64,000 nt of DNA from Planctomycetota bacterium (GTDB taxonomy: Bacteria > Planctomycetota > E44-bin39). The DNA is taken from contig SOJX01000009.1 of NCBI GenBank assembly GCA_004376375.1, positions 17,570 to 81,569 on the forward strand. Direction: 5' to 3'. The notes under the pieces were generated by a model. The model was not told the DNA's origin. It did no database searches and was given only the letters and a program-made list of their open reading frames with translations. How positions within the stretch are numbered: the stretch's first letter is position 1; each line of letters opens with the position of its first letter. The translations under genes were made by a program, and so were the position numbers. Shown piece by piece: positions 24,870 to 28,421 of the stretch.

Positions 24870-26264
24870 CTACTCGCTTTCATCCTCATCATAATCGACT
24901 TGGCAATCATGCTCGTAATTCATTAGAGCCATGAAATCAAGAAACATATTCCAAGAACTTGCTCTAACAAAAGGATCGTTCCCCATGTCGCCAATTATAA
25001 GCCCATCACCATGCTCATCTGCATGATGAAATTCATAATGCAGACGTTCATATATGGCTTGTTGCATTAATCCAAAAAAACCTACATGTTCAAGCAAAGG
25101 TGTACCTACCCCCAAGGAAGTTAAAAGCGCATGAATATTGGGGGAGCCTATTTCATAATCTATTCCCATCGATTTAAGCCTAAATCTAATCTCATCCCAC
25201 AAAGGCGATGTTCTGTTGGCTGAAGCTTGAGACATTTCTTGAATTGATACGCATCGCTCATCTTCTATCTGTGACTTGTTATTTCCGTTATCCTGTTGTG
25301 TTTCATGTAACCAGATGTCTTTCATTGAACAAAAATCAATATCGTGGTTGCACCAAAGGTTTTTTTTTATTTCTTTGCGCATTTCAATTATCCCCGCGTG
25401 ATCCATAACTATTTGTAACTGTCTACTTTTTAGGGCAGATAGCAATGGATTTTGGACACCAATCACAAATGAATGTGGATAAGGAAGGATTTCTGCCCCA
25501 AGAGCCGTGCCGTAAAGTACAAATCCTGAAAACCCAAGCCTAGAAGCGGTGGCAGAGATGAACTCAATGAAAGTTCGCGCTTCGGGTATTTCTGCGGGAA
25601 AACATATTTCTAGGCTGTCAAAACAATGCCATGCAAACTGAGAACAAGCAACAGTCTCATCAAGTTCGGGCAGCAAATCAATCAATTCAAGTTTTATCTT
25701 CTTAATTTCATCAGCCTCTAACTCTACTTTACAATCCATTGGAAGAATTACACGGTTTCCCCACGCCGCTTCATTTGCAAATGCCGCCTTTACTATTGTT
25801 CGCCATTCTGTTGAAATTGGAATCCAGACATGATCGAGAGAACTTAAACCCCAGAATTTGTTTTGAAGACCAGAAGTATAAGCGGCGAGCTGGGTAACAG
25901 CTTCCCGCTCCGTTTTAGCGGACCGTTTTATTTCAAGTAGGAACATTACACCTAATTCGGTATTATAAGCTAAAATATCTGCACTTGGCTGGAATCCAGA
26001 TTTACCCGTGGAAAGAAGTGGTAATTCTTTATCGATTAACTCTATGTCATAAAGAGAGTTAATCCCACGGAGATTCTGTTTGGCCAAAATGAATTTGAGT
26101 ATCTCGCGGGCATTAGGGCCTCCATCGTCTGGTGGAATTGCCAAGAAGTTAGGTTCAACCTTTGAAAGCTTTGCTCTTGATTCTTCAAGGTTCACAATAA
26201 AATTTGGCAAATCACCAATCCTATCAGCAAGAAAGTCCCGTATTTTACTTTCCAAAAGAGACAT
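24870..26264 (-). CDS. PD-(D/E)xK nuclease-fold protein with acidic C-terminus
   Basis: 464 aa. SADILAYNTELGVMFLLEIKRS gives a D-x13-E-x-K restriction-endonuclease-like core. The remainder is unknown. Low GC (about 40%). Confidence 0.6.
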   Translation of the reverse strand: MSLLESKIRDFLADRIGDLPNFIVNLEESRAKLSKVEPNFLAIPPDDGGPNAREILKFILAKQNLRGINSLYDIELIDKELPLLSTGKSGFQPSADILAYNTELGVMFLLEIKRSAKTEREAVTQLAAYTSGLQNKFWGLSSLDHVWIPISTEWRTIVKAAFANEAAWGNRVILPMDCKVELEADEIKKIKLELIDLLPELDETVACSQFAWHCFDSLEICFPAEIPEARTFIEFISATASRLGFSGFVLYGTALGAEILPYPHSFVIGVQNPLLSALKSRQLQIVMDHAGIIEMRKEIKKNLWCNHDIDFCSMKDIWLHETQQDNGNNKSQIEDERCVSIQEMSQASANRTSPLWDEIRFRLKSMGIDYEIGSPNIHALLTSLGVGTPLLEHVGFFGLMQQAIYERLHYEFHHADEHGDGLIIGDMGNDPFVRASSWNMFLDFMALMNYEHDCQVDYDEDESE

Positions 26265-26283
26265 TGTGGCGGTTTCTCCGCTT

Positions 26284-26934
26284 TTAGCTTATATTTTCTT
26301 CGTTCAACATTGCCAAGAGCTTATTGCTGTAACGTATAACGACAAAACGGACTCCCAAAATGGCGAAAAAACCAACTACAATTGTAATAACAATCCCACC
26401 AGTAAATGGAACTAAAAAATCATCGCACATCGCGTGGACTTTGTAAACATAGGTAAAGCAGACTGCTGGTATTGTAAAAAGGGGAAAGAAAAGTATCACC
26501 TTAAACATCTCTGGTGCAAAATCGAGCAATCCCCATTTCCCAATGCGTTCTCTTGTGAGTCGCCATCCCTTGGGCATTTTATCCACAATGTTAAATTCCT
26601 TTTCGATTTTATCGCATGCAATCTGCATGGAACGAAAGTTGTAGGAAAGGGCTAATATATAGATTGCACCTAATATTTGTATTAGAATTGTCCCCAACGC
26701 AGCAGCCAAAAGTCCTGCATTAGAAATGTTGATGTCGGATTTCGTTTGATTATGATGAACAAGAATCCATATGTAACCAGCAATGGGAGCGCCGAAAAGA
26801 GCAAGAAATCGGAGAAGGGCTTGTTCCCGGGTACGCATGCTTTCCAGTAGTATTTTATAGAATTCGCGCAGAATTTCTTCTTGGTCAAACGGTTGTGTGC
26901 CTTTTAGTTCTTTTTGATCGGGCATTGGATGCAC
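26284..26934 (-). CDS. four-TM integral membrane protein
   Basis: 216 aa with four hydrophobic helices (FLALFGAPIAGYIWILV, LLAAALGTILIQILGAIYILAL, VILFFPLFTIPAVCFTYV, IVITIVVGFFAILGVRFVVI). 19-nt gap to the downstream gene. Confidence 0.6.
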   Translation of the reverse strand: MHPMPDQKELKGTQPFDQEEILREFYKILLESMRTREQALLRFLALFGAPIAGYIWILVHHNQTKSDINISNAGLLAAALGTILIQILGAIYILALSYNFRSMQIACDKIEKEFNIVDKMPKGWRLTRERIGKWGLLDFAPEMFKVILFFPLFTIPAVCFTYVYKVHAMCDDFLVPFTGGIVITIVVGFFAILGVRFVVIRYSNKLLAMLNEENIS

Positions 26935-26957
26935 CTTTCCCTAACAAGTTATCTTCC

Positions 26958-28421
26958 TCAATCTGTCCACCATATTGTCCGAACTGGAATACTCGTGGCG
27001 GATGCGTCAATTATGTCTACATCTTCTATCGAGGAGCGCTGAACTCGCCTAAGAAATTCCTCGGAAAATCCCCGCATTTCTGCGTAATGACGATAAAGCT
27101 CGATTGGCACCTTCGGAGCGTTCTTCTTAAGCAACTTCTCAATTACTCGTTCCCTGGTAGTCCACTTTTCCAAACCTATAAACGTGAAGCCGATACCCAG
27201 AGTGGCTAAAAAATACTCATATAGAAAAAGTCCTAGAATTGTGCAAGCTATTCCCCCACCGACCGAAATTGCGCTGGCGACATTCTGTTTTGCATGTGCT
27301 TTTTGGAAAGATTCTTCCGTGGTGGGTTCTGCGTTTCGACAGAATTCCTGCAACTCACTAATAATTGCTTTCATTGTTTTGTGGAGTTTATCAAGAGAGG
27401 GTGACTGCAGCTTGGCGCATTCCAACAATGATTGGTATGCCTCTCTTGCTCGTTCTGCGTTACCACTTCGATGCCATTTCAAGAGAAATTCGAAACGAAA
27501 TTCTCGGGGGATATAATCGAATCTAAGGCCCCGGAAAAGCGAGTCTATGACTTCACTATCGAAATACTCAGCCGATGGAAGAAGTTTTTTTATAGCGATT
27601 ATAGGACGATCGCGAATTTTTGGTGGTGCTTGAGTGGCTCGTATATTTGCTGTACCTCCTGCTCCCATCACTTGAGGATATGCATACAGGTCGCTCGAAT
27701 AGAATAGATCATTAATTGCATATTCTGGATCTGTGTAAGAAGCTTCTGCAATTTCGTTAGCCTTGGATTCTCGGCCAACGAGGCAAAGATCGGTATAGTT
27801 GTTTCTAATTTGTTGCTTTATTTCTTTTGAGATAAATGCCTCGGATGTTGTCCTAAGACGCTTCCTCCAAGTAGCCCTCAACTCTGGAACCGACCACATA
27901 GCTGCATAGTCAAATTGTCTATCTGACCTCTCGAACCAGACATTGCCTCCAGTAAATTCCAATGCCGCATGCCAACGCTCCCACGTGGGCGGCATTTTGG
28001 ATAAGAGTCCATCGAGTTCGACCCGGATGTCGAGAGGCAAATAATGTCGTGGGTGATTCAGTACCGGAAAGATAAAACGCGGTGCATCACCATCGGGGTA
28101 CGCGAGGCGCATAAATGTTGAATAGGAAACACCAAACCGCTGTTCGAAATCAGTCCGCTTCATAGGAGGCACGTAAGCCACAGTTTGTCGGTAAAAGAAC
28201 ATAAGAAGAGCAATATTTACGCCGGGTCTGTGGATTCCAAATGGTTCCCTAAGTTCGTACTCGGGATAGAGTGCTCGGGCATCTCGAATAGTGTGATTTG
28301 GATGCAAGAGCGCGTCAGCAATTCCCCTCCCACGTTCGCGTTCGCATTCACGATACTCAGCGAGGAAGTTTTTACTTATAGACATTGGCTTTTGGCTCAA
28401 ATAGATTTTAGTGCTTTCCAA
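26958..28421 (-). CDS. hypothetical protein with C-terminal hydrophobic hairpin (membrane-associated)
   Basis: 487 aa. Hydrophobic segment SAISVGGGIACTILGLFLYEYFLATLGIGFTFIGL. First gene of a tight three-gene low-GC cassette. Confidence 0.6.
   Translation of the reverse strand: MESTKIYLSQKPMSISKNFLAEYRECERERGRGIADALLHPNHTIRDARALYPEYELREPFGIHRPGVNIALLMFFYRQTVAYVPPMKRTDFEQRFGVSYSTFMRLAYPDGDAPRFIFPVLNHPRHYLPLDIRVELDGLLSKMPPTWERWHAALEFTGGNVWFERSDRQFDYAAMWSVPELRATWRKRLRTTSEAFISKEIKQQIRNNYTDLCLVGRESKANEIAEASYTDPEYAINDLFYSSDLYAYPQVMGAGGTANIRATQAPPKIRDRPIIAIKKLLPSAEYFDSEVIDSLFRGLRFDYIPREFRFEFLLKWHRSGNAERAREAYQSLLECAKLQSPSLDKLHKTMKAIISELQEFCRNAEPTTEESFQKAHAKQNVASAISVGGGIACTILGLFLYEYFLATLGIGFTFIGLEKWTTRERVIEKLLKKNAPKVPIELYRHYAEMRGFSEEFLRRVQRSSIEDVDIIDASATSIPVRTIWWTD

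Follow-up and report, generated by a model that had tools for sequence, protein, structure and literature searches.

In Shedu, a defence system with a single-protein nuclease logic similar to that of type IV or solitary restriction endonucleases, the nuclease domain of SduA is C-terminal; Hachiman joins a nuclease, HamA, to a helicase, HamB. Two transmembrane helices are expected in the SLATT and two-transmembrane (2TM) effectors of cyclic-oligonucleotide-based antiphage signalling (CBASS), retron and reverse-transcriptase systems, and in PANGU a YejK-like nucleoid-associated sensor is encoded in an operon (gap below 40 bp) with an effector (bioRxiv 10.64898/2026.04.06.716658). Here we compare with these systems three adjacent genes, called A, B and C, of a 64,000-nucleotide stretch of DNA (the window) from the metagenome-assembled genome of a Planctomycetota bacterium (assembly GCA_004376375.1, contig SOJX01000009.1, forward-strand positions 17,570 to 81,569). 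An earlier note, made from the sequence alone, had proposed that they form one abortive-infection module, with a nuclease-fold sensor (C) and membrane effectors (A and B). Our analysis favours, with a probability of roughly 0.6, another explanation, namely that the trio is not one system and consists of genes, each mobile on its own, that have accumulated at the border of a defence island, coming from lower-GC donors and probably co-transcribed from a promoter upstream of A.

C would share with Shedu and with the solitary restriction endonucleases the logic of a nuclease acting as a single protein, but it matches no Shedu or other defence model of PADLOC (PADLOC-DB v2, a library of 2023, so that all defence-model matches reported here cover systems up to then), and its domain order is reversed, with the nuclease near the N-terminus; since the models fail to match and the domain order differs, C lies outside the Shedu and type IV families. 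Shedu, HamA and every other catalogued defence nuclease were rejected as identities of C, no PADLOC family being found at E<=0.1. Hachiman differs in that no HamA model is matched by C (Pfam, PADLOC) and no helicase is encoded beside C in the window. The PANGU architecture was considered because of a 'histone-like' neighbour of 186 residues and was rejected: this protein has no match to YejK/NdpA or to any other family in Pfam and NCBIfam, its gene has a host-like GC content and, lying 311 nucleotides (nt) from C, is outside the operon. Neither A, B nor C could be accepted as a component of Druantia type I, whose DruA, DruD, DruE and DruK-like proteins PADLOC assigned to neighbouring genes only.

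Genomic contexts of the A and C families

The contexts of related genes were collected through 12 exact-protein look-ups and through scans of metagenomes (one), genomes (one) and viral sequences (two), and A, B and C were then searched by tblastn in all 38 loci fetched in this way. A clear relative of C was found in about 16 distinct places (loci L001-4, L009, L012-L031 and L033) and a relative of A in six (L005-8, L011, L032, L037 and L038). At the C-family loci neither A nor B was present, and at the A-family loci neither C nor B; A and C were found together only in identical assemblies of the same strain, and B was absent from all 38 loci except those assemblies. Among the outcomes that the earlier note had named as refuting its three-gene system, a lack of co-occurrence in other genomes is what was observed, only identical same-strain assemblies carrying the trio, and the proposal of a nuclease sensor working with two membrane effectors is not supported.

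The surroundings of the two families were also compared by an all-versus-all BLAST of the open reading frames (ORFs) within 4-5 kb. No recurrent partner emerged for C, and the only recurrent neighbours of A were tyrosine integrases, in three of the six loci. The C homologues of L002 and L004, which share 80% identity, follow unrelated genes, a DUF900 hydrolase and a 265-residue protein, respectively; at L017 C is located between a divergent GDSL lipase gene and convergent genes, and at L006 and L011 convergent genes follow A. As C and A occur solitary elsewhere, neither needs the other genes for its maintenance, and the two families thus persist as autonomous genes.

Organisation and composition of the trio

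The three genes are co-directional, all on the minus strand, and the ORFs described in the earlier note, with gaps of 23 nt (A-B) and 19 nt (B-C), are indeed the longest ones (Table 1). The longest ORF of A begins at a TTG (28421), yet the gene most likely starts at the internal ATG 28385, because this codon is the first position of all 22 aligned A homologues, because independent gene calls in the same-strain assemblies give 475 residues for A, and because the -10 box of a promoter-like site extends to 28421 and hence to the initial base of the TTG ORF. The same gene calls give 213 residues for B, whose start is most likely ATG 26925. With the refined starts the gaps become 32 nt (A-B) and 19 nt (B-C).

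The promoter-like site, TTGAAC-18-TATAAT, is the sole match to 10 of the 12 consensus positions on the minus strand in the region. The 32- and 19-nt gaps together with this single strong promoter-like site suggest that A, B and C probably form one transcript in this genome, made from a promoter that precedes A. Inside the gap between B and C we observed a GC-rich hairpin of 5 bp (26268..26282; coding strand AGCGG-AGAAA-CCGC). Since this hairpin and the likely ribosome-binding site of C (GGAG) overlap, it could limit the translation of C. No structured RNA was matched by an Rfam search in and around the island.

The low-GC island noticed earlier is real, with values of 0.457 for A, 0.400 for B and 0.403 for C compared with 0.54-0.61 in the flanking genes. 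At third codon positions (GC3) A, B and C have 0.41, 0.38 and 0.34, respectively, and the flanking genes 0.57-0.69; this points to a foreign origin of the trio, by horizontal acquisition from lower-GC donors. Neither a tRNA insertion site nor an att-like flanking repeat was found at the island borders.

These features are also what one would expect if A, B and C were one defence or abortive-infection system, in which C would sense or act through its nuclease fold and the membrane effectors would be A and B, the system being confined to this lineage or too rare to have been sampled in others. The genes have the same strand, short gaps and one promoter-like site, their common low GC and GC3 fit a joint transfer, and they are located inside a defence island. 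Such a system is however difficult to reconcile with the absence of any joint occurrence of A and C in about 22 distinct loci, with the lack of homologues of B, with the preservation of A and C as solitary conserved genes elsewhere and with the restriction of other trio copies to identical same-strain assemblies, and we regard it as improbable.

Gene C

Among 5.8 billion proteins the family of C accounts for only 17 clusters, and when 1.84 billion representatives were searched with a profile, 363 sequences were obtained at E<1e-3, of which 40 at E<1e-30. The distant relatives have 400-460 or about 700-750 residues and only the N-terminal region, residues about 50-280, in common; no Pfam domain other than sub-threshold HSDR_N matches was found in them, and the source names in the family are all 'hypothetical protein'. 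C itself has no Pfam or NCBIfam family at threshold, it matches an unannotated phage protein family of PHROGs (phrog_30092, E 2e-8), and searching the literature by Pfam accession yielded no papers on the family.

Using the family alignment, AlphaFold2 modelled C with a predicted local distance difference test (pLDDT) score of 86 and a predicted template modelling (pTM) score of 0.86. The model contains a restriction-endonuclease-like alpha/beta core near the N-terminus, and none of 17 close homologues varies at E80 (in an upstream helix), D96, E111 or K113, with D, E and K invariant also in 48 distant relatives. Judged by both the modelled core and the catalytic residues, C belongs to the PD-(D/E)xK superfamily, in agreement with the fold assigned by the earlier note; of the D-x13-ExK core that it had read, the conserved D/E/K motif stands, whereas the spacing is x14 (D96-x14-E111-x-K113). 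The PD-(D/E)xK fold usually cuts DNA in a metal-dependent manner. C would thus be an autonomous, regulated DNA endonuclease, whose site formed by E80, D96, E111 and K113 would cut DNA with the help of a metal. For the remaining residues, about 290, the model shows a pair of alpha/beta domains with a disordered linker of variable length between them, and nothing informative was matched by these domains; they may restrain or target the nuclease until a trigger appears.

The C-terminal tail is strongly acidic and without basic residues in nine of the 17 homologues (DYDEDESE in the window protein), and more distant members have basic tails. The acidic tail could be an autoinhibitory DNA mimic. In several hosts the GC content of the C gene is below that of the surrounding locus (0.577 vs 0.64 at L009, 0.534 vs 0.617 at L001 and 0.527 vs 0.609 at L004), which fits a repeated horizontal transfer of the family.

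The best structural match to the modelled core is the mismatch endonuclease NucS/EndoMS. C lacks the NucS architecture (about 250 residues with an N-terminal DNA-binding domain), and it is rare and island-borne, unlike a housekeeping repair gene; identity with NucS was rejected, as NF003270 scores 12.8 bits vs a cut-off of 216 and C has 464 residues with other flanking domains. A type I HsdR subunit was rejected as well (HSDR_N_2, 22.6 bits vs a cut-off of 25), there being no helicase domain and no adjoining M or S genes.

We also evaluated whether C might be the constant member of a gene pair whose upstream member, here B, can be exchanged, in the manner of a conserved core with variable effectors. 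The upstream gene is co-directional with C in all six gene-called loci, at distances of 19, 32, 57, 107, 122 and 169 nt, and some of the partners look like effectors, such as the DUF900 hydrolase, which has transmembrane (TM) segments, and the 265-residue protein, which has two. On the other hand, the upstream genes are divergent at L017, where it is the GDSL lipase, and at L020/L025; a distance of more than 100 nt is wide enough for C to have its own promoter; no similarity exists among the upstream proteins, several of which do not resemble effectors; and a co-orientation of six out of six is weak evidence, islands being rich in operons. Such a partnership seems to us highly improbable, and an autonomous C remains the preferred reading.

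Gene A

The family of A is also rare: it consists of 26 clusters among the same 5.8 billion proteins, and only one of 185,579 GTDB species representatives, a Croceimicrobium metagenome-assembled genome, carries it. No Pfam, NCBIfam or PADLOC family was found above threshold and no PHROGs family was matched, consistent with the earlier statement that A, like B, has no recognisable domain. The N-terminal domain is a confidently modelled fold to which no solved structure is alike, and sequence-profile searches of the PDB with A, as with C, gave no meaningful match. Its invariant residues are Y52-P-E54, H64-R-P-G-V, H123-P, P145-x-W-x-R-W-H151, E200, Q204 and N207.

Towards the C-terminus a Gly-rich hydrophobic hairpin, already seen in the earlier note and supported by hydropathy at residues 381-410, keeps its place in the alignment in 21 of the 23 members of the family, with Kyte-Doolittle peaks of 1.4-2.4. 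The model and the hydropathy profile suggest that A is a cytoplasmic domain of novel fold carried on a membrane hairpin, as a single-gene unit. The N-terminal domain, rich in invariant His, Arg, Glu and Trp, would sense or catalyse, and the hairpin would anchor the protein or perturb the membrane, in the manner of abortive-infection (Abi) proteins.

This layout, a putative two-helix hairpin that follows long helices, recalls the SLATT and 2TM effectors, and A gives faint matches to SLATT_4 (E 0.098 in Pfam and 0.0033 in NCBIfam) and to the PADLOC '2TM effector' (E 0.0012). The identification was rejected since the scores are far from the cut-offs (12.8 bits vs 27 in Pfam, 17.3 bits vs 55 in NCBIfam). 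These matches are found in one (Pfam) or two (PADLOC) of the 23 members and cover the helices before the hairpin, not the TM region, so that they provide no family-level evidence for A as a SLATT protein. No SMODS, SLOG or reverse-transcriptase signal generator is found beside A in the six distinct loci or in the window.

Gene B

B has four hydrophobic segments in the hydropathy profile, where the earlier note had read four TM helices. Among 5.8 billion proteins a word-indexed search returned only B itself, and no match was obtained in Pfam, NCBIfam, PADLOC or PHROGs. A similarity to the four-TM protein encoded downstream of A in L005 was considered and rejected as not credible (BLASTP E 0.016 over 58 residues). 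B appears to be a lineage-specific membrane protein with four segments, and no evidence ties it to A or C.

Association with defence and mobile genes

Known defence genes recur beside both families. The neighbours of C homologues match PADLOC models of type I restriction-modification (RM), CapP, PbeA, mad2, RmrA, PDC-M23B and HamB, and also of a CBASS cyclase with TRIP13 and HORMA. Beside the A homologues there are, among others, type I RM with AAA_13, AbiEii, GmrSD_N, HEPN, methyltransferases, ThiF/BilB-like and PLD-SNF2 proteins, and the A-homologue loci hold in addition integrases (in three of six), a relaxase and transposases. The associations are fairly consistent, and from them a defence role of A and C may be proposed.

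Two loci can be described individually. At L020 (6004..11392), and in the near-identical L025, a distant relative of C, with 32% identity in the N-terminal 310 residues, directly precedes a Hachiman pair of the same orientation. The HamA protein has 276 residues (Pfam E 5e-8), and the following gene, of 1037 residues, is read as HamB from PADLOC HamB matches in the pooled neighbour ORFs, which are not attributed to single loci; this pair is complete without the C relative. At L037 (6031..8700) an A homologue (46% identity) adjoins ThiF (E1-like) and BilB-like genes that resemble the Bil ubiquitin-like conjugation defence system, and a relaxase and an integrase are encoded on the contig.

Integrases, transposases, a relaxase and resolvases near both families, loci without defence genes nearby and the similarity of C to a phage family (phrog_30092) could also indicate that the genes are cargo of mobile elements with a role other than defence, C being a selfish, homing-type or maintenance nuclease and A and B serving exclusion or an unrelated physiology. 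Searching 2.9 million viral contigs, 50,697 phage records and BFVD revealed no close relatives of A or C, and among 72,556 plasmids one distant match only, a relative of C on an Azoarcus plasmid; a phage or plasmid origin was rejected for lack of close relatives. These results, and the recurrence of known defence systems beside both families, make non-defence cargo unlikely in our opinion, and we keep to independently mobile genes accumulated at a defence island.

The defence island and the flanking genes

The trio is located at the edge of a genuine phage-defence island: a type I restriction enzyme, the Shango genes SngABC and Druantia DruA, DruD and DruE are all within 25 kb (PADLOC). The Shango system is complete (5192..11078), and Druantia type I is represented by the DruK-like protein, DruE, DruD, a 976-residue protein and DruA (11519..23561). 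No Pfam, PADLOC or NCBIfam family matches the 976-residue protein, and the 395-residue ORF between the restriction enzyme and Shango (3605..4792) has no match among the PADLOC models. Both flanks are as previously reported. In the 186-residue protein the N-terminal half is rich in Lys and Ala and is encoded by imperfect internal DNA repeats; the flank on the other side is a divergent gene whose product carries a lipobox-like cysteine.

Table 1. Coordinates of the trio, of its predicted features and of the neighbouring genes in the window
Feature	Coordinates	Strand	Remarks
Type I restriction enzyme	269..3334		PADLOC REase_I, E=0
SngA	5192..7555		Shango, PADLOC
SngB	7539..8861		Shango, PADLOC
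SngC	8871..11078		Shango, PADLOC
DruK/Cas4-like PD-(D/E)xK nuclease	11519..12775		Downstream of DruE
DruE	12781..18339		Druantia type I
DruD	18374..19459		Druantia type I
976-residue protein	19444..22374		In the place expected for DruB and DruC
DruA	22368..23561		Druantia type I
K/A-rich 'histone-like' protein, 186 residues	23998..24558		One flank of the trio
Gene C	24870..26264	-	464 residues; start unchanged
C, predicted PD-(D/E)xK nuclease domain	25755..26051	-	Residues about 72-170, near the N-terminus
C, putative catalytic motif D96-x14-E111-x-K113	25926..25979	-	From conservation
C, E80	26025..26027	-	Glutamate of the upstream helix, invariant
Gene B	26284..26934	-	Longest ORF, 216 residues; refined start ATG 26925, 213 residues (26284..26925)
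Gene A	26958..28421	-	Longest ORF, 487 residues; refined start ATG 28385, 475 residues (26958..28385)
A, hydrophobic Gly-rich hairpin	27192..27281	-	Residues 381-410 (487-residue numbering); putative two-helix membrane anchor or effector
A, N-terminal domain	27666..28385	-	Residues 13-252 (487-residue numbering); many invariant polar residues
Promoter-like site TTGAAC-18-TATAAT	28421..28450	-	Upstream of A; consensus scan, candidate by consensus match only
Divergent protein, 183 residues	28627..29178		Other flank; signal peptide, lipobox-like cysteine, weak sub-threshold TPR matches

Farther on this side, two adjoining genes for small helix-turn-helix (HTH) proteins of 82 and 88 residues (29354..29894), whose N-termini are visibly alike (YKNAA-[IL]LPP-LL-RV), look like a tandem duplication; the 82-residue protein has sub-threshold matches to HTH_23 and HTH_28. 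Another low-GC stretch (0.42-0.45) is present at about 35000..35750, and a protein of 1777 residues (35588..40921) combines a Ser/Thr kinase, an AAA_16 STAND-like ATPase, TPR repeats, a GAF domain and a sigma-54 activator domain.

Evaluation and meaning

Several observations weigh against the independent-gene explanation or against parts of it. All three genes are unusually low in GC and 19-32 nt apart, which fits an arrival as a single block, and this shared composition and spacing leave a slim chance of a functional link specific to the lineage; cooperation of the three proteins in this lineage is a less likely extension of our reading. The sample of contexts is small, as both families are very rare, and many contigs are short. 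B was searched by the word-indexed method only, which distant homologues could escape. The hairpin of A is moderately hydrophobic in some members (peaks of 1.36-1.42), and the AlphaFold2 confidence there is below 50. The proposed defence role of A and C comes from genomic association only, and the neighbours look ordinary at L009 and L012 for C and at L005 for A.

The gain from this analysis is incremental and not conceptual, since both proposed logics, that of C and that of A, are already known, although the families themselves are uncharacterised. The comparative context reveals a stack of independent genes, and from this it follows that tight spacing and a shared low GC content do not make a system. 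Defence islands are the main source of new immune mechanisms. A and C are very rare families that no domain database recognises, and in different phyla they recur next to RM, CBASS, Hachiman, Abi and Druantia genes; C is a well-modelled putative nuclease with clear active-site residues and A has a confidently folded domain without a solved structural relative. As a tentative proposal, itself rather doubtful, C may found an unrecognised family of single-protein anti-phage nucleases, with its conserved C-terminal domains, which match no known family, as a new infection sensor, and A may likewise be a new protein acting in abortive infection as a single gene, with a possibly enzymatic cytoplasmic domain of novel fold that would control the membrane hairpin.

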